Shown here one piece after another: positions 1,458-35,635 of a stretch of DNA of 64,000 bases; the first letter of the stretch is position 1, and each line of letters begins with the position of its first letter. A model generated the notes under the pieces. That model was not told the origin of the DNA. It searched no databases and was given only the letters and a program-made list of their open reading frames with translations. Where the stretch lies: contig JAEOTC010000038.1 of assembly GCA_016840035.1 (NCBI GenBank), forward strand, positions 78,760 to 142,759, read 5' to 3'. Origin of the DNA: Candidatus Hodarchaeota archaeon (GTDB lineage: Archaea; Asgardarchaeota; Heimdallarchaeia; Hodarchaeales; Hodarchaeaceae). The translations under genes were made by a program, and so were the position numbers.

Positions 1458-1910
1458 CTATTTTTGGTTCCAATGCGCATAACGTCGAATATAATCGCCA
1501 ACCTGATTTTGAAAGACCCTTCGATTTCGCTTCCATTGGCGCGCAGCAGTCGCATTTAGGGGGTCATCGGGATTGGGACTTGTTAGAAGGAATCGAATTG
1601 TCTCCACCACCTGCACTAAACTATAAGCTGGACTCCAATCCTTCCCAAGAATACCTACACACACTTTTTCTCTGAATATGTTCACATGCCAAATGGGAGT
1701 CTTAAACCTGACCTTTGGAGGTTCAAATGGATAACTACGAGGAATTTTTATTTCAATTACAAACACTCCCCCCTCATATAACCCAGATCCTAAAATTTCA
1801 CCTTTCCAGAAAGTCAAATCGTTGTTAACTGATCTAAAAGTTGGTTGTTCCCGAGTCAACTCTTGAGCTTCGATTGCAAGTCGATCTAACCATTCTTCTT
1901 CAGTTAACAG
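1458..1910 (-). CDS. Ubiquitin-conjugating enzyme E2
   Basis: YEGGVF, YPFEPPKVRF.TPIWHVNI, catalytic Cys in KVCVGIL.DWSPA, PNPDDPLN. Frame is open upstream of the track start (1859) and encodes helix 1; CTG at 1910 proposed as start. Confidence 0.92.
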   Translation of the reverse strand: MLTEEEWLDRLAIEAQELTREQPTFRSVNNDLTFWKGEILGSGLYEGGVFVIEIKIPRSYPFEPPKVRFKTPIWHVNIFREKVCVGILGKDWSPAYSLVQVVETIRFLLTSPNPDDPLNATAARQWKRNRRVFQNQVGDYIRRYAHWNQK

Positions 1911-3175: not shown

Positions 3176-5266
3176 GTGTCTTACTTGGAAGATTTAACTG
3201 ATAAGAAATTTGTTGTGTGTCCCGCGTGGCCTTACGTGAATGCTGTTCCTCATCTCGGAACAGTGTTACATTTACTTAGTGCGGATATATATGTTCGTTA
3301 CTTAAGGCTTCGTGGAGCAAATGTAATCTCAGCTACTGGTTCAGACTGTCATGGAACACCAATAGAGGTGGCTGCGCTAGCCACTGGAATATCACCTGAA
3401 AAATTGGTAGAACAACATCATGCTCAAATTTTAGACTTACTGCGGAAATGGAATATTGATCTAAATTATTCAAAAACAGAGAGCTCGCACCATTATTCTT
3501 GGGTACAGGATTTCTATCATCGATGTTTCGAAAATGGATTTATTTTCAGTAAAGAAATTGAACAATTGTACTGTGAGACAGACAAGCGTTTCCTACCCGA
3601 CAGATTCGTTGAAGGAACCTGTCCTCACTGTGAAACCCCAGGAGCTCGTGGAGATCAATGTGATTCCCCTTCTTGTGGAAAACCATTAAGTCCTGTTGAG
3701 TTAATAAATCCTGTGTGTAAAATTTGTGGAAAACCACCTATTACTAAAGTTACAACTCAATGGTATTATGATTTCAGTGCTTTCCAAGAAGAATTGACCG
3801 ATTTTATTAACAAGAATGAAAATTTCCCTGATAATGCACGTAAATTCTCAAATCATATCCTTCAGGAAGGATTACAAGCCCGAACTTTAACACGTGATCT
3901 CGCATGGGGAATACCTGCTGGGCCCGCAATACCTGGAGCAGAAGGAAAATCGATCTATGTATGGTTGGAAGCAGTTTTAGGATATGTTTCAGCATCAGCA
4001 GAATTAGGATTACGTTTATACAAAGACCCTGATTTTTGGAAACAATTTTGGCTTGAACAAGATACTCGGACTATTTTCTTTATTGGAAAAGACAATATTT
4101 TCTTTCATACACTTTTATTTCCAGCTCTTTTATTGGGAACTAAAGATACTTATGGTAAGCCATTTGTTCTTCCATACAATGTTAGTACAACCGAATTTCT
4201 TATTTTTGAGGAGGACAAATTTAGTAAATCCAGAGGTATAGGTGTCTGGATTGATGAAGCTGCCAAGCTCCTTCCTACTGATTATTGGAGGTATTATTTA
4301 GCAGCGACACGTCCAGAAATTAAAGATACGTCATTTACTTGGACTGAATTTGAGCAACGTGTAAACAATGATCTTAATGACGTATTAGGGAACTATATTC
4401 ATCGTGTCTTTGTACTAATTCACAAGTACTTTGAAGGAAAAATCCCAGAATGCCACAGGTTAGATACTACCGATAGAGAATTTGTTTCAGCCATAAATAA
4501 TGTTCCTGAGGCTGTAGCAGACCATTTTGACAATTTTGAATTTAAAAAAGCAGTCGCTGCAATCATTGATTTCGCTCGTGTCGCCAATGGATATCTAAGT
4601 ACAAAAGAACCCTGGAAATTAATAAAATCTGATCCTACAACAGTTGAAACTACATTATACCTTTGTGCTCAATCAGTTGCGACTTTAAGTGTTATTTTAT
4701 CACCTATTATTCCCGACACTGTGAAAAAAATTTGGGAAATCCTGAAACAGGATGGAAGTGTCCACGACCAGCAATTAGAGGATGCTGGAAAGCTAAGATT
4801 AGATCCAGGATCAGTCATTTTAGAATCAAAACCCCTTTTTGCTAAGGTTGAAAGCGAAGAATTACAGAAGGAACTCAACGCTATTCATAAAACGGAGTCT
4901 AAAAAACCAAAAAAGGTGAAAAAATTGCCAGATAGAGAAACAATTCCATTCAAAGATTTTGAGAGACTTGATATCCGAATAGGTACAATCATTAAAGCAG
5001 AAAAAGTTCCTAAAGCCAAGAATCTATTGAAACTAAGAGTAGATCTAGGCGAAGACATCGGAGAAAGACAGCTAGTCGCTGGACTTGCATCTTTTCGTGA
5101 CCCTAAAGACTTAATTAACCAAAGAATCACGGTTATAGTTAATCTGGAACCTACAACAATCAGAGGGGTCAGATCTGAAGGAATGCTCCTCGCTGCAGTC
5201 GAAGGTAAGGAATTAGGATTAATAGTCCCTGATAAAAATATCGCTAATGGCACTAGAGTTAGCTAA
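3176..5266 (+). CDS. metG: Methionyl-tRNA synthetase
   Basis: PYVNAVPHLG (HIGH), zinc knuckle, KFSKS, C-terminal tRNA-binding OB domain. Confidence 0.97.
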   Translation: MSYLEDLTDKKFVVCPAWPYVNAVPHLGTVLHLLSADIYVRYLRLRGANVISATGSDCHGTPIEVAALATGISPEKLVEQHHAQILDLLRKWNIDLNYSKTESSHHYSWVQDFYHRCFENGFIFSKEIEQLYCETDKRFLPDRFVEGTCPHCETPGARGDQCDSPSCGKPLSPVELINPVCKICGKPPITKVTTQWYYDFSAFQEELTDFINKNENFPDNARKFSNHILQEGLQARTLTRDLAWGIPAGPAIPGAEGKSIYVWLEAVLGYVSASAELGLRLYKDPDFWKQFWLEQDTRTIFFIGKDNIFFHTLLFPALLLGTKDTYGKPFVLPYNVSTTEFLIFEEDKFSKSRGIGVWIDEAAKLLPTDYWRYYLAATRPEIKDTSFTWTEFEQRVNNDLNDVLGNYIHRVFVLIHKYFEGKIPECHRLDTTDREFVSAINNVPEAVADHFDNFEFKKAVAAIIDFARVANGYLSTKEPWKLIKSDPTTVETTLYLCAQSVATLSVILSPIIPDTVKKIWEILKQDGSVHDQQLEDAGKLRLDPGSVILESKPLFAKVESEELQKELNAIHKTESKKPKKVKKLPDRETIPFKDFERLDIRIGTIIKAEKVPKAKNLLKLRVDLGEDIGERQLVAGLASFRDPKDLINQRITVIVNLEPTTIRGVRSEGMLLAAVEGKELGLIVPDKNIANGTRVS

Positions 5267-5311
5267 AGTTTAATAAAACCCAGTTCCCATTCAGAGTTTA
5301 GGGATGAGTTT

Positions 5312-6445
5312 ATGCCTGAATGGGATTTAATTCTTTACACAGACGAAAAACAGAAAAATGTTCTGAATAAACTAAAACTTTCTGATAAAACTTTGTCCGC
5401 TGCGGGCCAACACGGAAAAGCCACTATTCTCGTGGATCATCAGGGGAAAGAATGGCTTTTGAAGATTTTCTCTAATATTCTAGATTTAGAGGTAAAAAAA
5501 GTATCCGACTTGGATATCGATATTCAAGATACTCCCGAACGGAGTCGTGACCGACTTCATTTATGGCGAGTATTAAATGAGATTACAGCATCACGACTTG
5601 GAAGACGTTTGTACCTAAATGTTCCCGAAACACGGATAATTTGTTCAGGTAAGGTTGCCAAATTTAAGTTAAAGTCCTCAACAGTCCTTAAAGAAGAAGA
5701 TGTGGTAGTTTTAGATGAGGAAGAGGAAGAAGGGGAATCAGCAGAGGAATTTTATTCTTTTTCTGAGCGAGAAATTGGGTCTTTGAAAACTTCTGATCGG
5801 TTTGAAGAAATTCTAGCTCAAAAAAGTCCACGGAAAAATCCCACAGATATTTTAGCTCTTCTCCAAGAAAAAGTTCCAGATTCTCGGAATATTGATGAAT
5901 ACTTAGATGATCATAAGGCCGATTTAGATGCAGCCTTTGAAAATATTCAAAGCATAGATGATGCTTTTCTCCTTCTGCCTTTTGATATCTGGTTAAACGA
6001 TCCTGATCGAAATGCTGGCAATTATTTAGTCCAGCTGAACGAGAAAAATGAAGCTTCACGAATTTGGGGGATAGATTATGAAATGTGGTCCTTTGGAAGC
6101 GATATTTGGATGGAAGAAGATAATGTAACCCAAGGAAGAAGTTATCTTACCGCAATAATCCATCCAAAAAGTCATATTTTCGATTCACGGGTCAATCAAA
6201 CATTCTACAGAATAAGAATGCTTTCCGATGAGGAAATAGTTCAAATGACTAAAGCTCCTCAATTGGCTTGTAAGTTTTTCGAATTCCACATAAATACGGG
6301 CGATCTACACCCTGATGAGAGAGATAAATTAAAGCAAGTGGAGATTAACCTTGAAGATTTTCTGATTGAGTCCCGTCCACGTTCAGATAAATTAAGTGAA
6401 ATCATCACACGTCAAATAGGTTTACCTAAAGACTTTAAGACTTGA
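5312..6445 (+). CDS. HipA-like / PI3K-PI4K-fold atypical kinase
   Basis: WLLK, NE..ASRLG..L.LNVPET, FDIWLNDPDRNAGNYL, IDYE motifs. Confidence 0.7.
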   Translation: MPEWDLILYTDEKQKNVLNKLKLSDKTLSAAGQHGKATILVDHQGKEWLLKIFSNILDLEVKKVSDLDIDIQDTPERSRDRLHLWRVLNEITASRLGRRLYLNVPETRIICSGKVAKFKLKSSTVLKEEDVVVLDEEEEEGESAEEFYSFSEREIGSLKTSDRFEEILAQKSPRKNPTDILALLQEKVPDSRNIDEYLDDHKADLDAAFENIQSIDDAFLLLPFDIWLNDPDRNAGNYLVQLNEKNEASRIWGIDYEMWSFGSDIWMEEDNVTQGRSYLTAIIHPKSHIFDSRVNQTFYRIRMLSDEEIVQMTKAPQLACKFFEFHINTGDLHPDERDKLKQVEINLEDFLIESRPRSDKLSEIITRQIGLPKDFKT

Positions 6446-6470
6446 AAATAAATTGGTAAATTTCGGGTCT

Positions 6471-7649
6471 TCATAAAACAGCACTCTCAAGCAAGTTCTT
6501 TGTCTTTAAGGCCATCATGTATTCTTCATCGGTAGGAATAACCACAACTTCTATTTTGGATTCTGAAGATGAAATAATCACTTCTTCCTCTCCATTAGCT
6601 CCCTCGTTCTTTGAGATATCAATGGAAACATCTATACTATTCAGTCCCTTCACTATCAGTCTTCGAAAGTAAGAAGATCTCTCACCTATCCCACCTGTGA
6701 ACACAATCGCGTCTAATCCTCCCAAAGCAATAAGGTACGCTCCAATATATTTCCGAATTCTGTAGGCAGCCATCTGAACAGCTAATTCTGCAGAGTGACT
6801 CCCCTTCAGAGCACTTTCCTGGATATCCCGCATATCTCTAAAATTCCCTGTAATTCCCAATAAGCCACTCCTTGAATTTAATTCTTGATCGATTTGATCA
6901 ATGGTCAAATTTCCAGAACGCATCATAGCTAGTATTAAACCTGGGTCTATATCCCCCGATCGCGTGCCCATTATTAGGCCCTCTAAAGGAGTTAACCCCA
7001 TACTTGTATCAATTGATTTTCCATCATATACAGCTGTTACTGAAGCTCCATTCCCAAGATGTAAGACGATTAGCTTTTTAGATTTCTTTAAACTAAGTAA
7101 ACTTCTCGTTCTATTAGTCACATATTCAATAGATGTTCCATGAAACCCATATCTCCGGAAAGAATTTTCCTCATACCACTTTCCTGAAATCGCATATCTG
7201 TATGCATATTCTGGAATCGTAGCATGAAAAGAAGTATCAAAAACTGCAATATGAGGAATAGCTGTTAATTTTTTTTTACTAGCTCGGATTCCAATTAGAT
7301 TAGCGGGATTATGAAGTGGGGCAAGCTTTGATAGTTTTTCTATCTGAGATTCAACCTCAGTATCAATGATCAATTCTCTTCGGAACTGTTCTCCCCCATG
7401 TACTACACGGTGAGCTACAGCTTTAATCGTATTAATGTCGAAGAATGTTAAGACATAATCTACAGCCTCTTCATGAGTAGCACAACTTATTACCTTGGTA
7501 ACTTCCTCCTCCTTGCTTTTATGATATATCTTTGGTTCAGGGAGGCCTATTCGTTCCACTAATCCTTTAGCTATTAGCTGTTCTTTCTCCATGTTATAGA
7601 TCGAATATTTTAGAGAGGAAGATCCTGAATTTATCGTTAAAATTGTCAA
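6471..7649 (-). CDS. ackA: Acetate kinase
   Basis: INSGSSSLKY, HRVVHGG, APLHNPANL, RRYGFHGTS, HLGNGAS, DTSMGLTPLEGL, FTGGIGE, IPTDEE. Confidence 0.97.
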   Translation of the reverse strand: MTILTINSGSSSLKYSIYNMEKEQLIAKGLVERIGLPEPKIYHKSKEEEVTKVISCATHEEAVDYVLTFFDINTIKAVAHRVVHGGEQFRRELIIDTEVESQIEKLSKLAPLHNPANLIGIRASKKKLTAIPHIAVFDTSFHATIPEYAYRYAISGKWYEENSFRRYGFHGTSIEYVTNRTRSLLSLKKSKKLIVLHLGNGASVTAVYDGKSIDTSMGLTPLEGLIMGTRSGDIDPGLILAMMRSGNLTIDQIDQELNSRSGLLGITGNFRDMRDIQESALKGSHSAELAVQMAAYRIRKYIGAYLIALGGLDAIVFTGGIGERSSYFRRLIVKGLNSIDVSIDISKNEGANGEEEVIISSSESKIEVVVIPTDEEYMMALKTKNLLESAVL

Positions 7650-7659
7650 AAAGACCCCT

Positions 7660-9108
7660 CTAGTAGGTACCTTTAGGTGTATCAGTCCCTTTTACAATAG
7701 CAATGGATGCTGATGCACCAATCCTAGTTGCTCCAGCGTTTATCATCTGCTCTGCAATCTCGTGAGTTCTTATCCCTCCAGCTGCTTTTACACCCATTTC
7801 TGGACCTACTGTTTTTCTCATCAGAGCAATATCCTCAACTAATGCTCCTGCAGTACTGAAACCTGTAGAAGTTTTAACAAAATCTGCTCCACTTAATTTT
7901 GTTAACAGACTACCTTTAACTATTTGTTCCTTGGTTAGTAGAGCAGTTTCAAGAATGACCTTTACTATGGCTTTCCCTGCAGCGGCATTTACTACCGCTT
8001 GGATATCCTCCCTAACTAAGTCATCGTTACCTGATTTCAACGCTCCCACGTTAATAACCATGTCTACTTCATCTGCTCCATTTGCTACAGCATCTCGAGT
8101 TTCAATTGCCTTTACGGTGGGGGTAGTTGCTCCTAATGGAAATCCAATTACAGTACATACTTTCACTGAGCTACTTTTCAAATATTTGGCTGCTTTTGCT
8201 ACATTTGTAGGATTAATACATACTGATGCGAATTTATACGTTGCAGCTTCTTCACATAGTTGTTTAATCTCTTCTTCAGTTGCATCTGCACGGAGATTAG
8301 TATGGTCGATATACTGAGCAAGCTCCATATCATACCCATTTATCCCTGTCTCAGAGGTAATTCTTGTTGCTCCTCCATTAACTAATGCTTTAACAGCAGC
8401 TTGAGACTTTCCATCTAATCCAATCTCTTTCCCTGAAGTCCCAATTGTGTATGATCGATCAGAGGTGGTTGGGATATAGGGAGAGGGTTCTTGATCAGTT
8501 ATCTGATGAACATCAACAATTTTGATTCCCATAGTCCTTAATTGATCAATAATTCCCTCAATACGTCTATTCATTGCAGGTGGGACTTGATCTTTCTCAA
8601 TCTGACAACAGTAGATGGAATCATATGCTGCAATAACTGGTTTTCCATACATCAATCCAAATACTAGGGTTATAGTTCCCAAGGAATCTGCGTTCAAGGC
8701 CGCTACTTTAGCTGCAGTATTTAAGGATAATATAGGCACATAAATAACATCTACCCGACTTAAAATATTGTCAAAAAACTGTTCAGAATAATCAGTAATA
8801 ATTGTGGCTCCTTCAGAGACTTGTCTAATATCAGGTAAACCAATTATTTTTATTGCTGCACGAGTCATTACGATGTAAGTATTAGTATACGATTTTGAGA
8901 TTTTTTCTATTTGGTGCATAACTTCATTAATCTCTTTATTCCCCCCACATAGTAGAATTAAAGCTGAGTTTCCTGAAGCTATTGTATAATTGATTTTCCG
9001 ATTAGAAGTCTGTAAATTCGAATCGAACTGTTGTTTGGGAGCGAGATTATCTTGATCAAGCTTCCTCATCACTTCTTCAGTGATTTTCTGTATCATCTCA
9101 TTACTCAT
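7660..9108 (-). CDS. deoC: Deoxyribose-phosphate aldolase with N-terminal encapsulation peptide and flavoprotein-like domain
   Basis: C-terminal [36 protein letters not shown] (Schiff-base Lys), GVKAAGGIR; extra ~260 aa N-terminal region ([12 protein letters not shown]). Confidence 0.92.
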
Positions 9109-9128
9109 TTTCTTTACCCAAAATTATT

Positions 9129-9419
9129 TTAACTTAATTCAGTTTGTTTTCCATCCACTTCAATATAATCAATAACACCTACTATTAATGCATCCACAGC
9201 GGCTTTGTCATTATGCATTATACCTCGTATAGAGTTACCTTCTCGGATAACAAGGACACAATCCCCGATTCCAGATTTGGCTACATCTAGAGCGATGATA
9301 GAAGGCTCAGTGAAATTTCCTTTCAGATCTATCGGACGTACCACAAGTATTTTTCCGTTTTCATGACTCTCAGTTTTAATTGGAGCAACTACATTGCCGA
9401 TTACTTTAGCAAGAATCAT
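9129..9419 (-). CDS. eutN: BMC-P vertex (pentamer) shell protein, EutN/CcmL family
   Basis: MILAKVIGNVVA.IK...IALD...GIGD.VLV..EG...DA.IVGVID. Confidence 0.93.
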   Translation of the reverse strand: MILAKVIGNVVAPIKTESHENGKILVVRPIDLKGNFTEPSIIALDVAKSGIGDCVLVIREGNSIRGIMHNDKAAVDALIVGVIDYIEVDGKQTELS

Positions 9420-9958
9420 TCTGTTTCACTTTCTACAATTTTTGGTTTAATTTCACGAATCTTTTTTGGTTTCTTCTTTCGAGTGGCCCTTTTTCTTGGT
9501 TTTGGTTTAACTACGGGCTTAATTTCTTCAACTACTTCGGGTTCCTCTACTTTCGTTTTCGGGATCGGTTCAAGTATCTCCTCTTTGGGAATTTCCCCGA
9601 TTTCTTCATCTAGACTTATATCAACTTGTTTTAATGTTGCTGGAGGGGCCTTCTTCTTCTTTCTCTTCTGAGGTTTGCGTTTTGCACTTTTTGTAACATA
9701 ATATTCCTCAATATATCCAACTATACACTCATCAATCGGAACGAGTTCCTTTGGAAAGACAATAGCTGCCTCCTTTTTACTTACTACATACACAATATCT
9801 CCAGGTCCTGCAGTTTCAATGCCATCAGCGGCAACATATGGACTTCCCAAGGGTTGAAGATTATCATCTAGACCTTGAACTACTAGAAGTCGGAGAGAAT
9901 TTAATCCTGGATCTTTTGTTGAGGCAACAACATTCCCTATTACTTTTCCAAGTTTCAT
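9416..9958 (-). CDS. BMC-P vertex protein with long charged C-terminal tail
   Basis: MKLGKVIGNVVASTKD...VAADGI..AGPGD...PIDECIVGYIE followed by ~90 aa Lys/Glu/Pro-rich tail. Confidence 0.9.
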   Translation of the reverse strand: MKLGKVIGNVVASTKDPGLNSLRLLVVQGLDDNLQPLGSPYVAADGIETAGPGDIVYVVSKKEAAIVFPKELVPIDECIVGYIEEYYVTKSAKRKPQKRKKKKAPPATLKQVDISLDEEIGEIPKEEILEPIPKTKVEEPEVVEEIKPVVKPKPRKRATRKKKPKKIREIKPKIVESETE

Positions 9959-9962
9959 GTAA

Positions 9963-10421
9963 TCACGCTGATTTTAAATATTTCAATTCAATCTCGGAAA
10001 TCTTATTTACTCTGGTCTCGTGTCTTCCACCACCGAAAGGAGTAGATAACCAAATCTTAACAATATTTTGCGCAATTCCTGGACCAATTACTCTCGCACC
10101 TAAAGTCAGGATGTTAGAATTATTGTGTTCACGAGCGGAATTCGCAGTAAATTCATCCGTGCAAGGAGTTGCTCGAATTCCTTTAATTTTATTTGCTACA
10201 ATTGCGCTAGCTACGCCTGTACCATCGATGAGAATCCCAACGGATTCAACTGAGACTGCAACTGTTTGTGCTACTAATAATGCAATATCAGGATAATCCA
10301 CAGGATCTGTAGAATAACAACCATAGTCCGCAACTTCGTATCCTATTCCTTTCAGGAATTTTATCAGATCATTTTTGAGATGGAAACCACCATGATCCGA
10401 TCCAATTATTATTTTCTTCAT
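9963..10421 (-). CDS. rpiB: RpiB/LacAB-family sugar-phosphate isomerase
   Basis: GSDHGG, VDYPD, ANKIKGIRA, AREHNNSNIL, FGGGRH..RV. Confidence 0.93.
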   Translation of the reverse strand: MKKIIIGSDHGGFHLKNDLIKFLKGIGYEVADYGCYSTDPVDYPDIALLVAQTVAVSVESVGILIDGTGVASAIVANKIKGIRATPCTDEFTANSAREHNNSNILTLGARVIGPGIAQNIVKIWLSTPFGGGRHETRVNKISEIELKYLKSA

Positions 10422-10446
10422 TTGACTTCAACTTGTAATATAAAAC

Positions 10447-10998
10447 TCAAAGCAGAGTTTTTACTAGATCTGGATGAGGAGCAGGAATTACAGCAGTGGA
10501 TAATACTAATCCTTCTCCTTTTACACGATTAACCCCAGCATCTACAGCTGCTCGCACGGCACCCACTTCTCCTGTTAAAACAACAAACGCCTTTCCACCT
10601 ATTGCGCGACTCATCCGAATTTCGATTAACTGTACCTGCGCACTTTTAACAGCTTCGTCACCAACCATGATCGCTGTAGGAGCAGAATAAGTTTCTACTA
10701 CTCCTATCGCGCCTACTTTTTCAACTCCAGATGTACCCGCAATTGCTGGAAAAACCTCAGGATGTATATTGGGAATTACTGTGTAATTTACTAAGGTTTC
10801 ACCTGCTATTTCACTTCCAGCGATTAGAGAGCTTTGAACAGCTGCAACTGCTCCTTGAATAATGATTAAATATTTTCCAGGACATACTGGTGAGGCGAAT
10901 AATAGCTCGACTTCTGCTGTTTTCGCTATTGTATCGGCACTCAGTATACCTCGAGCAATTACATTTGTTTCTAGAACTCCTATAGCACGCATTTTCAT
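10447..10998 (-). CDS. pduT: BMC-T tandem-domain shell protein, PduT-like
   Basis: Two BMC domains; PVCPGKY retains the PduT Fe-S Cys position; GGKAFVVLTGEVGAV. Confidence 0.9.
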   Translation of the reverse strand: MKMRAIGVLETNVIARGILSADTIAKTAEVELLFASPVCPGKYLIIIQGAVAAVQSSLIAGSEIAGETLVNYTVIPNIHPEVFPAIAGTSGVEKVGAIGVVETYSAPTAIMVGDEAVKSAQVQLIEIRMSRAIGGKAFVVLTGEVGAVRAAVDAGVNRVKGEGLVLSTAVIPAPHPDLVKTLL

Positions 10999-11037
10999 TT
11001 TCCTCTAAGATTGTAAACAAAGATGAAAGTAGTGAGC

Positions 11038-11061
11038 ATTAGCTGCTCTCTTGCAGCTAAT
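11038..11061 (-). promoter_or_regulatory. Intra-operon hairpin after the major BMC-H gene
   Basis: Perfect 9-bp inverted repeat ATTAGCTGC-TCTCTT-GCAGCTAAT. Confidence 0.5.
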
Positions 11062-11068
11062 TGTTTAT

Positions 11069-11347
11069 TCAACCTTTCTTTGGGAGAATACTCTCAACTT
11101 CATCATGGGGTCGAGGAATTACATGAGCTGAGGTTAGTTCACCAACTTTTCGTGCAGCGACTGCACCAGCTTCAACAGAAGCTTTCACAGCACCAACGTC
11201 ACCTCTAACCATTACAGTAACAAAACCACCGCCAATAACTTCGCGTCCCATTAAATGAACGTTCGCTGCTTTCACCATAGCGTCAGCTGCTTCAATAGAT
11301 GCAACTAACCCTTTTGTTTCTATCAATCCAAGTGCTTCTTTAGCCAT
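11069..11347 (-). CDS. BMC-H hexamer shell protein (EutM/PduA-like)
   Basis: [10 protein letters not shown]...[11 protein letters not shown]...RGDVGAVKA...HVIPRPH; ATG at 11347 preceded by GGTGA. Confidence 0.97.
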
Positions 11348-11371
11348 TTTTTTCACCAATTTTTTTGTCTT

Positions 11372-12697
11372 TTATTTTGTCTTTTCAATGACAATTTCTT
11401 GTCCAATTTTGCGAATAATTCCGCTAATACTAGCATGAATTACTGCACCTAGTGACCCATCTGGAATCTTTCCTATGAGTGCACCTTTTTCAACCGAATC
11501 TCCTACTTTTACCGTTGGAATTGCAGGATCTCCGATATGTTGTTTGAGAGGGATGGAAACTTTTCGAATCTGTAATTTTCGTTTTCGTATTGGACATTCA
11601 TGATTATAATTCAATAGATCCAATCGTGAAATTAATCTTTTTACAGGTAATTTTCGATATTCCCTCTCAGGATGAATCGATAATACTTTTCGATTATGAG
11701 TATTCTTTAAACCCTCTACCCTCAACTGTCCCTTTACTTCTGTCATCATTTTACATGGATCCAACCCCATAGGACATCCATAATATGTACAAGCTCCACA
11801 TTCCACACAAAGGAATGTTCCCGTCATATAATCGGGTCTTTCTGGAGCACCCCATGCTATTCCTCGCATAACTTTGTCAGGATGTAATTCATGGCCCAAT
11901 AAGAATCTAGGACAGACATCTGTACATAATTGACATCTTATGCATGCTGCTTTGGTAACAATTACTTTGGATGAGATCCGTTCAGTTTTCATTCTGATTA
12001 CAAAATGATTCTCTGGCAAAACAATTATTCCAGAAGTTAATTTGGTAATAGGTTTTTTAGGGGCAATTACTGTACCCATCATGGGTCCATTTATCAATAC
12101 TTGATAATCATCGATTGTAGCTCCCCCTGCAGCTTTTATTGCATCCTTTATTGAGGTACCAATTGGAAATTCCATCGTAGAGGGGTTTTTAACAGCGCCT
12201 GTTATGGTTACATAACGAGATACTATGGGATTTCCTTCAGCGGCCTCAGCTAGATTGATCAATGTATAGACATTATTTACTACGACTCCAATGTCAAGAG
12301 GGAGTCCACTTTCCGGAATTATTTTACCTAAAGCTTCATAAACAAGAACATGTTCATCTCCAGCAGGATAAACATCATCGAGAAGGAATATCTCGATTCT
12401 GGAATCAGCTTTGACCACTTGTTTAAGCTTCTTAATTGCAGTTTTATACTTCCTTTTTACAGCGATTATTCCTCGCTTCGCCCCAGTGGCTTTCATTCCT
12501 AGCTGTAATCCAGTTATTAATTTTCCTGGACAGGTTGTCATTAATTGCTGATCCACTCTTAATAATGGTTCACATTCAGCTGCATTAACTATAAACGTAT
12601 CTACTTTCGCAGAAAGCTTCACATGTGTAGGAAAACCAGCTCCACCAGCTCCAACTATTCCAGAATTTCGTGCCATGTCTGCTATTTCGGAGCTCAC
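11372..12697 (-). CDS. pduS: PduS/RnfC-like flavin and Fe-S oxidoreductase
   Basis: GIVGAGGAGFPTHVK, NAAECEP, YPAGDE, two CxxCxxCxxx(x)CP clusters, C-terminal PLKQHIG barrel. Confidence 0.92.
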   Translation of the reverse strand: MSSEIADMARNSGIVGAGGAGFPTHVKLSAKVDTFIVNAAECEPLLRVDQQLMTTCPGKLITGLQLGMKATGAKRGIIAVKRKYKTAIKKLKQVVKADSRIEIFLLDDVYPAGDEHVLVYEALGKIIPESGLPLDIGVVVNNVYTLINLAEAAEGNPIVSRYVTITGAVKNPSTMEFPIGTSIKDAIKAAGGATIDDYQVLINGPMMGTVIAPKKPITKLTSGIIVLPENHFVIRMKTERISSKVIVTKAACIRCQLCTDVCPRFLLGHELHPDKVMRGIAWGAPERPDYMTGTFLCVECGACTYYGCPMGLDPCKMMTEVKGQLRVEGLKNTHNRKVLSIHPEREYRKLPVKRLISRLDLLNYNHECPIRKRKLQIRKVSIPLKQHIGDPAIPTVKVGDSVEKGALIGKIPDGSLGAVIHASISGIIRKIGQEIVIEKTK

Positions 12698-12724
12698 TTA
12701 TATTTGCCTCGTTTTCTTTTGATT

Positions 12725-14152
12725 TCAAATGATTCTAAAAGCATCCACTAGAGTACAACGTCTTTGACGTGTAAAAGTTCTTGCTGAGGTAAGTCCTTCT
12801 CCCGTTGGTCCTGCAATTGTCATAGTAGTATAGCCTTCCCCTCCGAATCCAATCCCAGCAAAGGAGGGGGCATTTTTGACAAAAATTGTAGTTTCGATAT
12901 CTTTTGCCACAAGACTCATATTTCCAACTGAATCGCTCCACATCATTGCTGTGTGTTTGAATCCATGTTCAGCCTTCTTTGCTTTTTGCAAAGCTTCTTC
13001 TATTGATTTCACTCTAACTATTGGTAAGACTGGCATCAACATTTCAGATATTACGAAGGGATGTTCATCATCAGGCACCTCTGCAATTATCAACCGGATA
13101 TTGTCACTAACCTGCACTCCGATTCCCTCAAGAAGTATTTTGGCATCTTTTCCGATGAAGTCCCTGTTTACTATGGGAAATCTCCCTTTCTTTCCTTTGA
13201 AAACGAGATTAGTCAGTTGGACTATCTGATCTCCAACAATTTCATATGCACCATAATTCTTCATTTCTGCTTTTAATCGATCAGTGATGACATCAAATGC
13301 GAATACTTCTTTTTCTACAATACATACAATATTATTATCAAAACTTGCGCCTTCTACTATTCCTCGGGCTGCTTTTTGAATATTTGCAGTATCATCAACT
13401 ATTACAGGAGGATTTCCTGGTCCTGCACATATCGCTTTTTTTCCAGATTGCATTGCAGCTTTTACTACTGCACTTCCTCCTGTTACAACTAGACACCGAA
13501 TCTTTTTGTGTGTCATTAAAGTCTGGGCTGACTCAATCGTAGGGGATATGGTTGATGTAAGAACATTTTCTGGTCCCCCCGCTTCGAGAATTGCCCTATT
13601 CAATAATCTCACAGCTTCATTACTTGCTCTTTTAGCTGATGGATGAGGATTAAATACTACGCTATTTCCTGCCGTAACCATTGATATTCCATTGTTAATT
13701 ATCGTTGCTGTTGGGTTTGTTGAAGGAGTAATTGACCCAATTACGCCATAAGGAGCCATTTCAACAAGTGTTAATCCTTTATCACCCGTCCATGTATTTG
13801 GTACCAGATCTTCTAAGCCTGGAGTTTTTCGAGCACAGAGCAAATTCTTTGCTACTTTATCCTCTAATCTCCCTAGACCAGTTTCTTGGATTGCTAATTC
13901 AGCTAGATATCGTGCATGTTTAATAGCGGAGTCACGCATCGATTGTATGATTTCTTTTCTTCTCTCCAAAGATAAATCCATTAGTGCTACTTGACTCTTT
14001 TCCGCAGCCTCTATTGCCTGTTCAATGTCCTGGAATATTCCTCCACCTGCACTAGTGGGAATATTCTCCAATCCTGAATAGACTTGATAAGCTCTTATTT
14101 TCTGTACAACAGAATTGACGATTTTTGCAATTTGTTGTTCGTCATATGACAT
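12725..14152 (-). CDS. eutE: CoA-acylating aldehyde dehydrogenase (EutE/PduP family) with N-terminal encapsulation peptide
   Basis: PSTNPT, FNPHP, TGG, AGPGNPP, FDNNIVC (catalytic Cys), GPTGEGLTSARTFTRQRRC. Confidence 0.95.
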   Translation of the reverse strand: MSYDEQQIAKIVNSVVQKIRAYQVYSGLENIPTSAGGGIFQDIEQAIEAAEKSQVALMDLSLERRKEIIQSMRDSAIKHARYLAELAIQETGLGRLEDKVAKNLLCARKTPGLEDLVPNTWTGDKGLTLVEMAPYGVIGSITPSTNPTATIINNGISMVTAGNSVVFNPHPSAKRASNEAVRLLNRAILEAGGPENVLTSTISPTIESAQTLMTHKKIRCLVVTGGSAVVKAAMQSGKKAICAGPGNPPVIVDDTANIQKAARGIVEGASFDNNIVCIVEKEVFAFDVITDRLKAEMKNYGAYEIVGDQIVQLTNLVFKGKKGRFPIVNRDFIGKDAKILLEGIGVQVSDNIRLIIAEVPDDEHPFVISEMLMPVLPIVRVKSIEEALQKAKKAEHGFKHTAMMWSDSVGNMSLVAKDIETTIFVKNAPSFAGIGFGGEGYTTMTIAGPTGEGLTSARTFTRQRRCTLVDAFRII

Positions 14153-14199
14153 TTATCTACCTTCGTTTCGTTTTTTATTTTCTTACATAAAGGGAAATC

Positions 14200-14490
14200 T
14201 TATTTTCGATAAGTTTCTTTTCCATTTATTTGGATAAAATCTATGATAGCTTGGATCGTTGCATCTGTGGGTTTATCCTTGGTCATTGCAGTTAAACGAG
14301 ATGAACTTCCAGTAACAACTAGTACTAATTCGTTCTCTCCCGCACCAACTGCATCAATTGCCACGAAAGGAGAACTCTCTGGTTTTAAATCAGTCATATC
14401 CACTGGTTGTACTATCATTAATTTAAAGCCTTTAATACTGGCATCCTTCTCGGTACTTACTACATTTCCTATTACTTTACACACTTTCAT
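14200..14490 (-). CDS. eutN: BMC-P vertex shell protein, EutN/CcmL family
   Basis: KVIGNVVSTEK...VAIDAVGAG..E.VLVVTGSSSR...DATI.AIID. Confidence 0.95.
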   Translation of the reverse strand: MKVCKVIGNVVSTEKDASIKGFKLMIVQPVDMTDLKPESSPFVAIDAVGAGENELVLVVTGSSSRLTAMTKDKPTDATIQAIIDFIQINGKETYRK

Positions 14491-14501
14491 GTAAATATCT
14501 C

Positions 14502-15221
14502 CTAAATCTTAATTATCTTTATATCAAGCATTTTAGCTTTTTCTTGTGCTAAGGGGGTAATAATAGTTGAATGGGGTACAAATATTTCGTGAATTTTACC
14601 TTTTAATCCCTCTAAATAATCCTCGGTAATTAAATCTGGTATAGCTGGAGTATGTTTGACAAATTGATCTTCTAAGTCCTCTATGTCAACAAGTCTGAAT
14701 CCCATTTCGATTAAAGTAGATAAATATCGACTCAGATTATTAGTTAACATACCCGATGGGCCATAGTCAAATGTTAAATCTGTGGGAGGAAAAGGTGTTA
14801 CAATATAAACAGGAATTTTAAATAACAACCCTTGAAGTAATAAATTAACAGTTGAATTGGAATCTTCAAATTTTGTTATTTTTTTTGCTATTTCAAAACT
14901 AAAGGCACCAAACATAATTGATTTAAGATTACTGTAAAAATTTAGGCAAAAATCTCCAAAAGGATTAACTAAAACGTCCATTGTGGGAATTGAACCTGCT
15001 TTTGTGGTTATTTTCTTAGCCTGGTCAATTTCATCCTTTGTCCAGATCAGGACTTGCATTTTTTGTTCGGCTAATCTAATTAGGGATTGTAATAATTCAT
15101 CCAATCCTTGTCCCATATGGGTTAAGACACCTAGGACATCGTAAGGACCTAGGTTATGCTCATTCTTGAGAACACTCTTAACTTGCTGTGTAACGAGTAA
15201 TTCGAGCTCTTTCTCATTCAT
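14502..15221 (-). CDS. BMC-associated flavoprotein-like protein with putative encapsulation peptide
   Basis: N-terminal amphipathic helix (ELELLVTQQVKSVL), degenerate flavoprotein-like core, C-terminal LITE...IITPLAQEKA..L.I.I motif seen in BMC ancillary proteins. Confidence 0.6.
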   Translation of the reverse strand: MNEKELELLVTQQVKSVLKNEHNLGPYDVLGVLTHMGQGLDELLQSLIRLAEQKMQVLIWTKDEIDQAKKITTKAGSIPTMDVLVNPFGDFCLNFYSNLKSIMFGAFSFEIAKKITKFEDSNSTVNLLLQGLLFKIPVYIVTPFPPTDLTFDYGPSGMLTNNLSRYLSTLIEMGFRLVDIEDLEDQFVKHTPAIPDLITEDYLEGLKGKIHEIFVPHSTIITPLAQEKAKMLDIKIIKI

Positions 15222-15236
15222 GATGCTTCACTCTTG

Positions 15237-15548
15237 TTAATCTCTTCCAGGATCCTCTTCTACGCTTGAAGTTCGACTTCTGACTTTCTCAATAAGATCA
15301 ACCGTCACCTGATCAGGTCTTGGAATTACATTAGTTAATAAACCACAGGAGATCTGACGTAGTTGGACTTTTGCTGCTTCAATTGCTTCACGGACAGCAG
15401 CGACCTCTCCCTCAATTATCACAATAACCAATCCCCCTGAAACACGTTTTAAGGAAATAAGGCTCACATCTGCGGTTTTCATGGCCGTATCTGTTGCCAC
15501 AATGGCTCCTATCCGACCGCATGTCTCCATAAATCCTAAAGCTTTCAT
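15237..15548 (-). CDS. BMC-H hexamer shell protein (divergent)
   Basis: KALGFMET.G...ATD.AMKTADV...GEVAAV...NVIPRP; ATG at 15548 after AGGTGA. Confidence 0.92.
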   Translation of the reverse strand: MKALGFMETCGRIGAIVATDTAMKTADVSLISLKRVSGGLVIVIIEGEVAAVREAIEAAKVQLRQISCGLLTNVIPRPDQVTVDLIEKVRSRTSSVEEDPGRD

Positions 15549-15553
15549 TAAAA

Positions 15554-17410
15554 TCACCTGAACGGAGAATAAGATCCTTCTTTTAAATCCAAAATCAGAC
15601 TCCCCATTTCTCCCGTATTCAGTGCAAGAGCATTACCCTCGTCAAGGTCTAAATGGAGCTCCAAATTATAATCCGGGTGAATTCTAACCATGATCTCGTC
15701 TAGGATTCCAGCTCGGGTTCCAGGAAATTGAACAGCAACTATCTGTCGATCTGACACATTTAACCTTTGCGCATCTTTTGGTGACATGTGGATGTGTCGC
15801 GCTGCGAAAATGACTCCCTTATCCAAAGTGATAGCTCCCTTTGGACCAATTATGTGTACTCCTGGAGTATCTCTTAAATCTCCTGATTGACGTGTTGGTG
15901 GATTAATACCTAATACATAACCGTCACTCCGAGATATTTCAACTTGAGTTTCGTCTCTGAAGGGGCCAAGAATACGAACTCCATAGATGGCTCTTTTGGG
16001 GCCGATTAGATCAACAACTTCTTTGCATGCATACTGTTTTGGTTGAGTTAAGGAATTAAGGGGAGTTAAAACTGCTTTTTCTCCAAATAATTTGTGAAAA
16101 TCGGCTTTTGAAAGGTGGATGTGACGTGCAGATAAGGATACTGGAATTAAATGATCATCGAATACTTTAGTCAGCTCATCGGTGACTAATCTCTTCACTA
16201 GTTCTCCAGCTGCTGACTGTGTACTTCGTTGTGAAATGGGTTGATATTCACAACCTAATGGACCGCAATATCTTCCTACATATTCAGCAGAGGGTCTATA
16301 AATCACTGGTTTGACGGTAGGAGTTTCGGGATACTTCTCTTCTAAAACATGAGCAGTCCAACCAGCGACTCTCGATGTAGTAAAAATCGGTGTAAAGAGT
16401 TCAACTGGGATATTTAAGCTTGTATATACCGTGGCACCATATAGATCCACATTAGGATATATTCCACGATTTTTTCGCTTCTTAAATTCTTTTTGAGTAA
16501 TCTCAACCAACTTATTGGTAGTTTCATACATCCATTGAGCTAATCCACCCTTCCTTCTCACAAGATCTGCAGCCATTTCCTTCAATATTTTGGCTCTCGG
16601 ATCTGTAGTTTTATATACGGCATGTCCCATCCCCATAATTCGTTTACCTTCATTAAATCGATTTTTGACCCATTCCTCAGCACTTGAGACTTTCTTAATC
16701 TCCATTAAGCTTTCATAAACTAAATGATTAGCTCCCCCATGATACATCCCTGATAAAGAACCAATGGCACCAGAAATAGATGCATATAGATCCGCTCCAG
16801 TAGATGCAATGACCCGAGCTGTGAATGTGGAAGCATTGAAAGAGTGTTCTGCATGTAGAATTAGTGTGACATCAAAGATCCTTGCTTCTTCATCAGTTGG
16901 GATACTCCCATGAAGCATGTAGAGGAAATTTGATGCATATTTTAGATTCTTATTTGGAGCGATTGGTTCTTTATTGCTACGAATTCTCTCCCATGCGGTC
17001 ACAATAATAGGAAGCCGAGCTATTATTCTAATTGCAATATTTCGATCGGATTCTCTTTTTCCAGTCCCGATCTCGTTGTTGTATCCTGCTAGTAAAGCTA
17101 ATGAAGATTGGAGTACACTCATAGAAGGGGTATTCTTTGAGGTTTTCTGTAAATGTGAGATTAATTGTGGTGGTAAATCCTGATTTGAAATTATTGCGTT
17201 CTTAAAACTCTCCAATTGATCAAAAGAGGGGAGGTTTCCGTACAGAAGTAAGTAAACTACCTCTTCGTAGGTTGAATTTCTTGCTAACTCATTAATGTCA
17301 TAACCTCGGATAAATAGATTGCCTTTTTCACCTTCTATAAGACAAATATTTGTATCCGCAACCTCAACACCGCGAAGTCCTGTTGATTTGTGGCTATGTT
17401 CTTCAATCAT
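15554..17410 (-). CDS. Citrate (or 2-methylcitrate) synthase fused to PduL phosphotransacylase
   Basis: N-terminal ~390 aa: GLRGV, HAEHSFNASTF, HGGAN, GMGHAVYK..DPR, PNVD. C-terminal ~190 aa: SARHIHL, RHIHM, LHLDLDEGNA. Single uninterrupted frame. Confidence 0.92.
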   Translation of the reverse strand: MIEEHSHKSTGLRGVEVADTNICLIEGEKGNLFIRGYDINELARNSTYEEVVYLLLYGNLPSFDQLESFKNAIISNQDLPPQLISHLQKTSKNTPSMSVLQSSLALLAGYNNEIGTGKRESDRNIAIRIIARLPIIVTAWERIRSNKEPIAPNKNLKYASNFLYMLHGSIPTDEEARIFDVTLILHAEHSFNASTFTARVIASTGADLYASISGAIGSLSGMYHGGANHLVYESLMEIKKVSSAEEWVKNRFNEGKRIMGMGHAVYKTTDPRAKILKEMAADLVRRKGGLAQWMYETTNKLVEITQKEFKKRKNRGIYPNVDLYGATVYTSLNIPVELFTPIFTTSRVAGWTAHVLEEKYPETPTVKPVIYRPSAEYVGRYCGPLGCEYQPISQRSTQSAAGELVKRLVTDELTKVFDDHLIPVSLSARHIHLSKADFHKLFGEKAVLTPLNSLTQPKQYACKEVVDLIGPKRAIYGVRILGPFRDETQVEISRSDGYVLGINPPTRQSGDLRDTPGVHIIGPKGAITLDKGVIFAARHIHMSPKDAQRLNVSDRQIVAVQFPGTRAGILDEIMVRIHPDYNLELHLDLDEGNALALNTGEMGSLILDLKEGSYSPFR

Positions 17411-17643
17411 TGGTAGGCCTTTTTATTTCAAGTAAGATTTCGGTATCAAAAGGTGAAACTTCCTTCCCTTAAAAATCGCTCTTTCAAACGTCTGACGATT
17501 CAAAATGGTAATTTCTTCCCAAACTTACTGAATGTTAATCTGGTTAATATGAGAGAGTTATTTTGTATTATAGATAACCAATAACACTATATAATAGATA
17601 GTAGCTTTTATTAGAAGACTATTCTCTTTGGAGGTTATTATCT

Positions 17644-18691: not shown

Positions 18692-18874
18692 ATGGCAGGA
18701 AGTCACGGAAGCCTTACAAAAGCTGGGAAAGTTCGAAATCAAACTCCTAAAGTTGAAGGACGTAAAAGAAAAGGATTAACACCTATCTTACGCAACAAAA
18801 AGAATTATATTAAGAGAATTGTTAAAGAGATGCCGGTAGGTCAACCTGAATATCGTCAAGAACGTCGAAGGTAA
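18692..18874 (+). CDS. rps30e: 30S ribosomal protein S30e
   Basis: SHGSLTKAGKVRNQTPKV. Confidence 0.95.
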   Translation: MAGSHGSLTKAGKVRNQTPKVEGRKRKGLTPILRNKKNYIKRIVKEMPVGQPEYRQERRR

Positions 18875-23187: not shown

Positions 23188-24321
23188 TTGCCTTTAGACA
23201 AAAAGTACAAAACAATTTTTGAATCAGGGATATTATTAGGGTCAGCTGTAATCCTAGCGATTATTATATCACTATCATTAGTAGGTTTTCTCGGTAATTC
23301 GTCTATGCCCAATGTGGCTGTATCTACATATAGTATGATGCCGATTTATAAGGGATTTGAAGGTTCAACTACCCTACACCCACTTCAGGGGGATATCCTC
23401 TTAGTAAAAAATGTTCCAGCCGAATCTCTGGAAATTGGAGATGTGATTGTATTTGATACACCCTCCATTCCTGATCCTGTAGTACATAGGATAATAGCGC
23501 GGTGGCAGAATAGTTCAGGTCATTTCTTCTTCAAAACTAATGGAGATAACAAAGAAACAAATAAATATCCTGATTCGTGGACTGTTCATGAAAAAGACGT
23601 TATTGGCAAGGTTGTCATTCGAATCCCTCATATAGGATGGTTCCTACTAACTTTACAAACAAATTTAGGTAAAATTTTGATCCTTTCTCTAGCTATTCTG
23701 GTTTTATTTGGAGAGGATATCTTTGGTTATCTCGGTCTTACAAAGAAAGAGGATAATAACAGCTCTACACGAACCGAACTACAAAAAAATGGGAATTCCG
23801 AAGCTAAAAAACCATCCAGATCGTATATTAATATTATAAAAAGGAAAGAATCAATCTACATATTTTTGGGAACAAGCATATTCCTAATATTTATCTTTAG
23901 TAATTTCTTGGCTGGATTCTCGCAGACCCCTTCAATTGATGTTTTTAAAATCAATGATTCGGCAGAGAGCAATAGTCTTCTAGATTCTTCACCTGATTCA
24001 CTTATGTCTCTCAATCCTCAAGGGGAATGGACAGAAATAATTGAAAATTTTCCACAGAGAGTCTATTTCTATCCAATATTGATTAAGCTTCGATCAGGGG
24101 GAATTTTCAATAATATACATTACTTTGAAATTCGTGTTAACCAAAATCAAGGTCTTTATAGATGGACAATCGTCAATAATTATATCGGAACCCATACAAT
24201 AAGCGGGGGAATCATTTCGCAAATAAACGGAACTGTTAACATCTCTATTCACTTATATTCAAGAGGTTTGTTTGCAAGCCCAATACAAACGTTTACTTTT
24301 CCATTATTTCTTCAAGGTTAG
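23188..24321 (+). CDS. Signal peptidase I (Sec11/SipW type) with C-terminal extension
   Basis: VSTYSM.P, GD.IVF, PVVHRI, TNGDN, VIGKV..RIP.IG. Confidence 0.88.
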   Translation: MPLDKKYKTIFESGILLGSAVILAIIISLSLVGFLGNSSMPNVAVSTYSMMPIYKGFEGSTTLHPLQGDILLVKNVPAESLEIGDVIVFDTPSIPDPVVHRIIARWQNSSGHFFFKTNGDNKETNKYPDSWTVHEKDVIGKVVIRIPHIGWFLLTLQTNLGKILILSLAILVLFGEDIFGYLGLTKKEDNNSSTRTELQKNGNSEAKKPSRSYINIIKRKESIYIFLGTSIFLIFIFSNFLAGFSQTPSIDVFKINDSAESNSLLDSSPDSLMSLNPQGEWTEIIENFPQRVYFYPILIKLRSGGIFNNIHYFEIRVNQNQGLYRWTIVNNYIGTHTISGGIISQINGTVNISIHLYSRGLFASPIQTFTFPLFLQG

Positions 24322-24331
24322 TGCATTCATC

Positions 24332-25087
24332 ATGGTAAACATATGTTATTTAGTTGGTACAGCAGGTTCAGGAAAAACTATGCTGATTTCATCTCTTCAG
24401 CAATATCTAAAACAAAAAGGAGCAAGTTTGACAATAGTTAACCTTGATCCTGCCGTTCGACATATCCCTTATCAAGCTGATATAGATATAAGAGACTATA
24501 TTGATTTTGATCAGCTTGTAGATGAATACAAACTTGGACCAAATGGGGCGTTAATAGCTGCGACTGATCTTGTTGCCGATTACATAAATGATATCAGAGA
24601 AAACGTTGAGGAGTTAGGAGAAAGTTCCGATATCGTATTAGTAGATACTCCGGGTCAAGTGGAACTTTTTGCTTACCGAAACGCGAGTATAAGAATCACC
24701 AAGAGCTTTCCAACAGATTCAACTTTACTTGCCTTTTTGTTTGATTCTGCCTTGGTTTCGAATATTTCAGGCTATTTGTCTGTAAACCTGTTAGCGACTT
24801 CTGTACAAATTCGTTTGAACTTACCTATTATTCATGTAATGTCAAAAACCGATTTACTTAAACCTCATCAAGTTGATGATATTTTGGATTGGAGAGAAAA
24901 TCCGTATGATGCCATTGATCAGCTATACGGAATGAACCGTGAATTTGCATTCAAAACTGGCCAAATTTTTGAAGATATGGGCGATATACCCTTAATACCT
25001 GTTAGCTCATTGTCTGGAGAAGGATTAGAGCTTCTCAGCGCTCAATTAAGCAGAACTTTTTCTGCGGGGGATGATTGGTCCATTTAA
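24332..25087 (+). CDS. GPN-loop GTPase
   Basis: GTAGSGKT, NLDPA, LGPNGA, DTPGQVELF, SKTD; ATG at 24332. Confidence 0.93.
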   Translation: MVNICYLVGTAGSGKTMLISSLQQYLKQKGASLTIVNLDPAVRHIPYQADIDIRDYIDFDQLVDEYKLGPNGALIAATDLVADYINDIRENVEELGESSDIVLVDTPGQVELFAYRNASIRITKSFPTDSTLLAFLFDSALVSNISGYLSVNLLATSVQIRLNLPIIHVMSKTDLLKPHQVDDILDWRENPYDAIDQLYGMNREFAFKTGQIFEDMGDIPLIPVSSLSGEGLELLSAQLSRTFSAGDDWSI

Positions 25088-35493: not shown

Positions 35494-35635
35494 TAGGGAC
35501 GGCGGGATTTGAACCCACGACCTCTTGGTATTCTGATAACCAACATCGGTTGGTTATTCCCAAACCAAGAATCATCTAGTCGTTATTTCCGTGTTATTCC
35601 AGAGAATAACTAAAACCATGCTAGACTACGTCCCT
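35494..35635 (-). tRNA. tRNA-Pro(TGG) with two introns
   Basis: AGGGACG/CGTCCCT acceptor; 29-nt BHB intron at 37/38 (35530-35558); second ~36-39-nt intron in the D-loop (about 35575-35613). Confidence 0.88.

Follow-up and report, generated by a model that had tools for sequence, protein, structure and literature searches.

The 64-kb stretch of DNA analysed here (the window) is the last part (positions 78760-142759) of a 142,759-bp contig from the genome of a Candidatus Hodarchaeota archaeon, and it contains an operon for a protein-shelled organelle of the bacterial microcompartment (BMC) type. Position numbers below are those of the window, and the gene set was defined from a list of open reading frames (ORFs) and Pfam scans. 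Thirteen co-oriented minus-strand genes fill positions 6471-17410, with gaps of -4 to 70 bp between neighbours and Shine-Dalgarno-like motifs (GGAG, GAGG or GTGA) upstream of most starts. Within these 11 kb, two BMC-H, one BMC-T and three BMC-P shell genes are found together with seven cargo or accessory genes, six of which have enzyme domains; such a cluster of BMC-H (PF00936), BMC-P (PF03319) and enzyme genes is what characterizes a BMC locus. In the direction of transcription, the features are the following (lengths in amino acids, aa).

17411-17643, no strand: divergent, AT-rich intergenic region of 233 bp upstream of the operon, presumed from the sequence read to be the promoter region
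15554-17410, minus strand: first operon gene, a fusion of citrate synthase (CS) and PduL/phosphotransacylase (PTAC), 618 aa (PF00285 and PF06130)
15237-15557, minus strand: BMC-H 1, 106 aa (PF00936, E 4e-21), with a 4-bp overlap with the upstream gene
14502-15221, minus strand: 239-aa 'DUF' protein, without a Pfam match of its own
14200-14490, minus strand: BMC-P 1 (pentamer vertex protein), 96 aa (PF03319, E 2.3e-29)
12725-14152, minus strand: CoA-acylating aldehyde dehydrogenase (AldDH), EutE/PduP-like, 475 aa (PF00171, E 1.4e-38)
11372-12697, minus strand: PduS-like metabolosome NADH dehydrogenase (MNdh), 441 aa (PF01512, Complex1_51K, E 8e-46, plus SLBB, Fer4_17 and RnfC_N)
11069-11359, minus strand: BMC-H 2, 96 aa as listed (PF00936, E 8e-29)
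10447-10998, minus strand: BMC-T with tandem BMC domains, 183 aa (PF00936, E 1.8e-43, in two stretches)
9963-10421, minus strand: RpiB/LacAB-family protein, 152 aa (PF02502, E 2.8e-52)
9416-9958, minus strand: BMC-P 2, 180 aa, with a long C-terminal tail (PF03319, E 2.4e-20 over residues 1-83)
9129-9419, minus strand: BMC-P 3, 96 aa (PF03319, E 4.9e-20), with a 4-bp overlap with BMC-P 2
7660-9108, minus strand: fusion of a flavoprotein-like domain (Flav) and deoxyribose-phosphate aldolase (DERA), 482 aa (DeoC part PF01791, E 1.2e-17)
6471-7649, minus strand: last operon gene, acetate kinase (AK), 392 aa (PF00871, E 3.3e-133)

An initial annotation, made from the letters alone, had described 13 co-oriented genes at exactly this place, a complete shell set of two BMC-H, one BMC-T and three BMC-P, and ribosome-binding sites, all of which the ORF list, the PF00936 and PF03319 matches and the motifs before most starts bear out. 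Its enzyme list (DeoC, RpiB, AldDH, PduL, AckA and a PduS-like protein) stands as well, but it had overlooked the CS-PduL and Flav-DERA fusions, the 239-aa protein, the BMC-P 2 tail and a Cys-to-Asp change in the RpiB-like protein.

Du et al. (bioRxiv Nov 2025, PMC12747264) have described operons of this kind as 'archaeal microcompartments' (AMCs), which they report from 66 of 111 Hodarchaeales genomes, and the statement of the initial annotation that no characterised archaeal example was known is outdated by that work. The type I AMC operon of Du et al. comprises two H, one T(s) and three P shell genes, Flav+DERA, AldDH, CS+PTAC, MNdh, DUF, a ribose-5-phosphate isomerase-like protein (RPI) and AK. 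All of its features are found in the window, including the tail of P2 and a CPGK motif; moreover, there is no extra H3, and no triose-phosphate isomerase (TIM) or class II aldolase domain occurs among the 13 genes. The type I operon of B3_Heim (GCA_003144275.1) has the same 13 genes in the same order and in the same slot, between metG and the gene of a CxxC protein. The proteins of the window operon are 71-96% identical to their B3_Heim orthologues, and the two operons, from different species-level genomes, show no structural difference. The window operon is thus an orthologue of the type I AMC operon, and hence already known. From the GCA_003144275 operon, Du et al. assembled shells in vitro and in E. 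coli (transmission electron microscopy, size-exclusion chromatography), and on orthologues of the cargo proteins they tested encapsulation-peptide-like helices and showed that cargo is recruited in a peptide-dependent way.

Judged from the sequence, the predicted shell gene set is complete, and genome-wide PF00936 is confined to these operon genes. The listed start of BMC-H 2 is TTG, an ATG four codons further in being likelier. This protein is identical (100% over 93 aa) to its orthologues in the related genomes YT2_004 and YT2_065, with a nonsynonymous divergence (dN) of 0.000 and an unusually low synonymous divergence (dS) of 0.31. Its invariance and low dS are in line with the very high expression of H2 reported in the cultured carrier strain SC1 (PMC12747264). 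The BMC-T protein has the CPGK motif at residues 39-42, which Du et al. read as an Fe-S site in T(s). The tail of BMC-P 2 consists of 92 C-terminal residues of low complexity, with 23 Lys, 15 Glu, 12 Pro and 6 Arg (29 Lys plus Arg); according to Du et al., the Lys/Arg-rich, disordered P2 tail of an orthologue binds DNA and RNA.

Among the enzymes, the CS-PduL fusion has a citrate synthase domain (PF00285, E 1.1e-122, residues 11-373) and a PduL domain (PF06130, E 1.9e-70, residues 423-597), which match the PDB structures of citrate synthase 1iom (E 2e-84) and PduL 5cuo (E 1e-49), and the hydrophobic moment reveals an amphipathic helix in the linker, at about residues 402-419. The AldDH, whose relatives are named EutE or propionaldehyde dehydrogenase, has an encapsulation-peptide-like helix at its N-terminus (residues 5-21), with the top hydrophobic moment of the protein at residues 6-20. 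In the 482-aa Flav-DERA protein, the DeoC domain covers only residues 264-465, residues 1-260 forming a separate N-domain; the amphipathic helix at its N-terminus has the second-highest hydrophobic moment in the protein. The DERA part matches the solved DERA 8qps (E 1e-82), and it keeps the motifs of E. coli DERA, namely VKTSTGF around the Schiff-base Lys, GVKAAGG and VDMVIN. It is encoded by the sole DeoC-family gene found in the host genome (87% complete), in which there are also four PNP_UDP_1 nucleoside phosphorylase genes and two genes with a PYNP_C domain, whose products could supply the DERA substrate.

In the RpiB-like protein, Asp replaces the catalytic Cys (GILIDGTG vs GIVICGTG in Clostridium thermocellum RpiB 3he8). 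This change matches the published account of RPI proteins from sugar-phosphate-utilizing (SPU) BMCs, which typically lack the active-site Cys, bind DERA and barely isomerize ribose 5-phosphate (Dwyer, Sutter & Kerfeld 2024, PMC11585597). As the catalytic Cys is missing, the protein is, by analogy, more likely a partner of DERA than a ribose 5-phosphate isomerase.

The 239-aa protein belongs to a family for which a profile search collected 177 cluster representatives. Of 50 aligned relatives, 12 have a PF02441 Flavoprotein match, the best one with E 1.2e-14, and in four the C-terminus matches PF15953 PDU_like. Neither window sequence reaches the PF02441 gathering threshold, the 239-aa protein having no match and the DERA N-domain scoring 16.7 vs 22.7 bits (E 0.0056). 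An AlphaFold2 model of the 239-aa protein (pLDDT 84.5) has an N-terminal helix at residues 3-19, and the top Foldseek matches of this model in the PDB are UbiX/HFCD chains (E 2e-5, target TM 0.5-0.64); the modelled fold is an HFCD/UbiX Rossmann-like one. When the 239-aa family was aligned with the DERA N-domain by hhalign, the match (99.7%, E 7.8e-26) extended over 223 columns and included the N-terminal helix. The 'DUF' is a paralogue of the DERA N-domain, both having a UbiX/HFCD-like (PF02441) fold, and the operon therefore encodes this module in two copies, a free one and one that is part of the DERA fusion. In the free copy, the UbiX/HFCD-like Rossmann domain is preceded by an amphipathic helix at the N-terminus and followed by a PDU_like tail at the C-terminus, and in both paralogues the N-terminal glycine-rich motif has diverged in sequence.

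We compared the window operon with bacterial metabolosomes as well. SPU BMCs are defined by DERA, a signature enzyme whose catalysis has been verified, and their RPI-like protein lacks the active-site Cys, as in the window (PMC11585597). Both systems have AldDH, PTAC, a PduS-like protein and an H/T/P shell set. With DERA in the locus next to an RpiB-family partner, an acylating AldDH and a phosphotransacylase, the window operon belongs to the SPU type, which the initial annotation had proposed from the pairing of DeoC with RpiB and which the work of Dwyer et al. supports. The enteric Pdu and Eut metabolosomes (PduP/EutE, PduL, PduS, PduT) have the same aldehyde-trapping core of acylating AldDH and CoA recycling by PduL, and like the window they have PduS-like and Fe-S BMC-T proteins for redox exchange. 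However, their signature enzyme is a B12 diol dehydratase or an ammonia lyase instead of an aldolase, and unlike them the window operon does not include an alcohol dehydrogenase to recycle NAD+ and does have a citrate synthase fusion.

The operon is located 85-96 kb into its contig, which extends for more than 46 kb beyond it in either direction. On both sides it is accompanied by archaeal or Asgard genes, including those for E2, metG, S30e, a GPN-loop GTPase, aIF2-gamma, aIF5B, Trm1, RPA and aEF2. Flanking features are listed below.

1458-1859, minus strand: E2 ubiquitin-conjugating enzyme (UQ_con), a eukaryote-signature gene near the operon
5312-6445, plus strand: orf377, 377 aa, adjoining the operon, without a Pfam family
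18692-18874, plus strand: ribosomal protein S30e, a eukaryote-signature gene near the operon
24272-25087, plus strand: GPN-loop GTPase (PF03029), a eukaryote-signature gene near the operon
35494-35635, minus strand: tRNA of 142 nt (Rfam, 39.3 bits), missed by ARAGORN and presumably an intron-containing archaeal tRNA

The acetate kinase gene converges on orf377, the end of which is 25 bp away. The orf377 product has an acidic stretch and a faint HipA_C kinase-like match (E 0.097). No integrase or transposase was found among the flanking ORFs scanned.

Five relatives were compared gene by gene: the single-contig chromosomes CP070695.1 (4.94 Mb) and CP070760.1 (3.16 Mb), both from Candidatus Heimdallarchaeota; YT2_004 and YT2_065, from Candidatus Hodarchaeota; and NJBF01000010.1 of B3_Heim, which belongs to GCA_003144275.1. 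The order metG, orf377, operon, CxxC protein is kept in all five, with orf377 at the same position in each (62-85% identity). Syntenic orthologous loci, flanks included, are thus present in genomes classified as Candidatus Hodarchaeota, Candidatus Heimdallarchaeota or Hodarchaeales, of the same genus as the window genome. Amino acid identities to the orthologues in these relatives are 45-100% for the operon proteins and 57-86% for the flanking proteins. Against YT2_004 and B3_Heim, dN/dS is 0.00-0.12 in every one of the 13 operon genes, which are all under strong purifying selection; dS ranges from 0.3 to 3.1 in the operon and from 1.5 to 2.5 in flanking genes, and is saturated in both. Within the order, PF00936 is present in 9 of 24 genomes, all in one genus. 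In CP070695.1, an insertion of about 4.4 kb separates metG from the orf377 homologue (locus positions ~4022-8470), and no acetate kinase homologue occurs within the 30 kb examined around its microcompartment locus.

Pattern-based locus searches built on the DUF and AldDH alignments led almost exclusively to Asgard records and had too little sensitivity for mapping bacterial relatives, which were taken from named AldDH protein matches and from one Myxococcota contig. About 35 Asgard matches precede the first named bacterial AldDH relatives, which are from Myxococcota and 58-61% identical. In Myxococcota GCA_018820615.1, the locus reads PTAC-DUF-P-AldDH-MNdh-T-P-TIM-RpiB-H-P-H-DeoC and is collinear with the window operon in the order PTAC-DUF-P-AldDH-MNdh; its unassigned 251-aa gene is homologous to the 239-aa protein (E 1e-13). 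Unlike the window operon, this locus has a bacterial host, a triose-phosphate isomerase, and unfused DERA (240 aa) and PTAC (230 aa). It lacks a citrate synthase and a long P tail, and acetate kinase is missing from the locus. A 265-aa gene after DeoC, without a Pfam match, was considered as the unfused counterpart of Flav, which its match does not support (E 0.008, a short off-register stretch). In an AldDH tree of 38 rows, the window sequence falls within a 100/100 clade of Hodarchaeales and Heimdall sequences, and this main Asgard clade forms a polytomy with a second pair of Asgard sequences and with a clade of Myxococcota and Deltaproteobacteria, the three together being split from a Firmicutes group (96/94). 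The tree agrees with the transfer from Myxococcota that Du et al. infer (PMC12747264), of which it is no independent proof.

Taken together, these results make us highly confident that the locus is a native, vertically inherited and functional type I AMC operon, that is, an SPU-type metabolosome in a Hodarchaeales chromosome. Some observations weigh against this. Du et al. (PMC12747264) state that no compartments have so far been observed in cells of Hodarchaeales. The locus is missing from 15 of the 24 genomes of the order and is therefore dispensable. At 38.5%, the GC content of the operon exceeds the genome value of 36.1% and ranks at the 98th percentile among random 10.9-kb segments, and by tetranucleotide distance the operon ranks at the 94th percentile among random segments of the genome. 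Finally, the relation between Asgard and Myxococcota sequences is a polytomy in the small AldDH tree. The compositional offset is mild and fits either an old horizontal origin or high expression; there is no break at the operon.

That BMCs were long held to be restricted to bacteria, and that the operon is in the upper tail of genome composition, could be taken to mean that a bacterial BMC contig, for example from Myxococcota, was joined to or binned into an Asgard genome. The chance of such a chimera is negligible: archaeal informational genes flank the operon on either side within its 143-kb contig, operon and flanking genes agree in dS, no named bacterial AldDH match exceeds 61% identity, and the occurrence of the same chromosomal slot in five other genomes, with closed-chromosome synteny in two single-contig chromosomes, effectively refutes it. 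A recent mobile island, acquired independently by this genome and not a stable trait of the lineage, would accommodate the same compositional offset and the patchy distribution, since genomes of the same genus that are 93-99% complete lack the operon. Nevertheless, it is very improbable, given the identical insertion site in all carriers examined, the divergence of the operon that tracks that of its flanks with dS saturated in both, the absence of integrase and transposase genes from the flanking ORFs scanned, the 100/100 clade formed by Asgard AldDH sequences on their own, and the operon tree of Du et al., which is congruent with the species tree and implies losses (PMC12747264). An old horizontal acquisition followed by vertical descent and losses fits best. 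On these points the initial annotation has held up: it had proposed an Asgard host with archaeal flanks (metG, E2, S30e, an intron-containing tRNA) devoid of integrases and transposases, and a horizontally acquired operon that is now native, to which the nearest bacterial relatives, the synteny and the dN/dS values all point. Of the checks it had named, the comparison of composition with the genome revealed the mild offset, and the search for PF00936 in related genomes led to the syntenic locus; the near-identical bacterial copy that it had considered as a refutation did not turn up among the named AldDH matches.

A working scheme for the native type I operon can be drawn from its gene content. 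Facets of the shell would be tiled by the two BMC-H proteins and BMC-T, and its vertices capped by the three BMC-P proteins, as suggested by the domains in the window and by the assembly of the B3_Heim orthologues (Du et al.). Four cargo proteins may be recruited by amphipathic, encapsulation-peptide-like helices, which are visible in the window sequences and were tested on orthologues by Du et al. Cytosolic nucleoside phosphorylases would make deoxyribose-5-phosphate, which Flav-DERA inside the shell would cleave to glyceraldehyde-3-phosphate and acetaldehyde, as expected from the identity of its DERA domain. The acylating AldDH would then convert acetaldehyde, CoA and NAD+ into acetyl-CoA and NADH, while the PduS-like protein, docked on the CPGK-bearing BMC-T, would export the electrons and regenerate NAD+, following the proposal of Du et al. 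CS-PduL would recycle CoA by directing the acetyl group either to acetyl-phosphate, from which the operon acetate kinase would make ATP, presumably outside the shell, or to citrate. The RpiB-like protein without its catalytic Cys would act as a DERA partner, as Dwyer et al. (2024) describe, and the Lys-rich tail of BMC-P 2 would be on the shell exterior, where a nucleic acid-binding role is suggested by its orthologue (Du et al.).

The shell could also be real and serve another role, acting on a different sugar phosphate or aldehyde, or mainly routing acetyl-CoA to citrate for biosynthesis. There is no archaeal locus with a tested substrate (per PMC12747264), and the citrate synthase fusion is unusual for metabolosomes. 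Moreover, the RpiB-like protein lacks its catalytic Cys, and two flavoprotein-like domains are without an assigned role. This alternative has some merit and is still unlikely, as the DERA domain is very close to characterised DERAs, preserves the motifs of E. coli DERA, and is the only one of its family in the genome. DERA is, furthermore, a signature of SPU BMCs that has been verified catalytically (PMC11585597).

For the paralogous modules, a tentative proposal, less probable than its opposite, is that a single BMC-specific module in two copies, each consisting of an encapsulation helix and a UbiX/HFCD-like domain, forms a hub, either flavin-dependent or serving only as a scaffold, that seeds the core of the cargo and links DERA with this core. 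The hub may also feed the electron exit through the PduS-like protein. If true, this would mean, together with the non-isomerizing RpiB-like protein, that the lumen of SPU and archaeal compartments is organized by degenerate enzymes acting as scaffolds.

Elsewhere in the window, an EF-2/EF-G family gene at 47900-50335 (plus strand) encodes 811 aa and coincides with a local rise in GC to ~40%. Typical archaeal aEF2 proteins are shorter, and this gene may represent the eukaryote-like form of EF2 that some Asgard archaea are reported to have. The aIF2-gamma ORF at 28832-30343 (minus strand) is 503 aa as listed, with its GTPase domain from residue 98, so either the listed start is too far upstream or the protein has an N-terminal extension. 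A DUF460 protein of 734 aa (53854-56058, minus strand) adjoins two long calcineurin-like phosphoesterases of 513 and 688 aa (57249-58790, plus strand, and 58802-60868, minus strand).

To the operon described by Du et al., the window adds a further, independently verified instance on a long contig, evidence that all 13 genes are under strong purifying selection and the observation that its DERA is the sole one of the genome. It also adds two small annotations: DUF and Flav are paralogues with a UbiX-like fold, and in the RpiB-like protein the catalytic Cys is replaced by Asp. The broader significance has already been claimed, with experiments, in that study (Du et al. Nov 2025, PMC12747264). 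Metabolic organelles with a protein shell, present in the order of archaea that is closest to eukaryotes, mean that compartmentalised catabolism of bacterial origin existed in this lineage, and the organelle gives a handle on the harvest of energy from scavenged DNA in Hodarchaeales.

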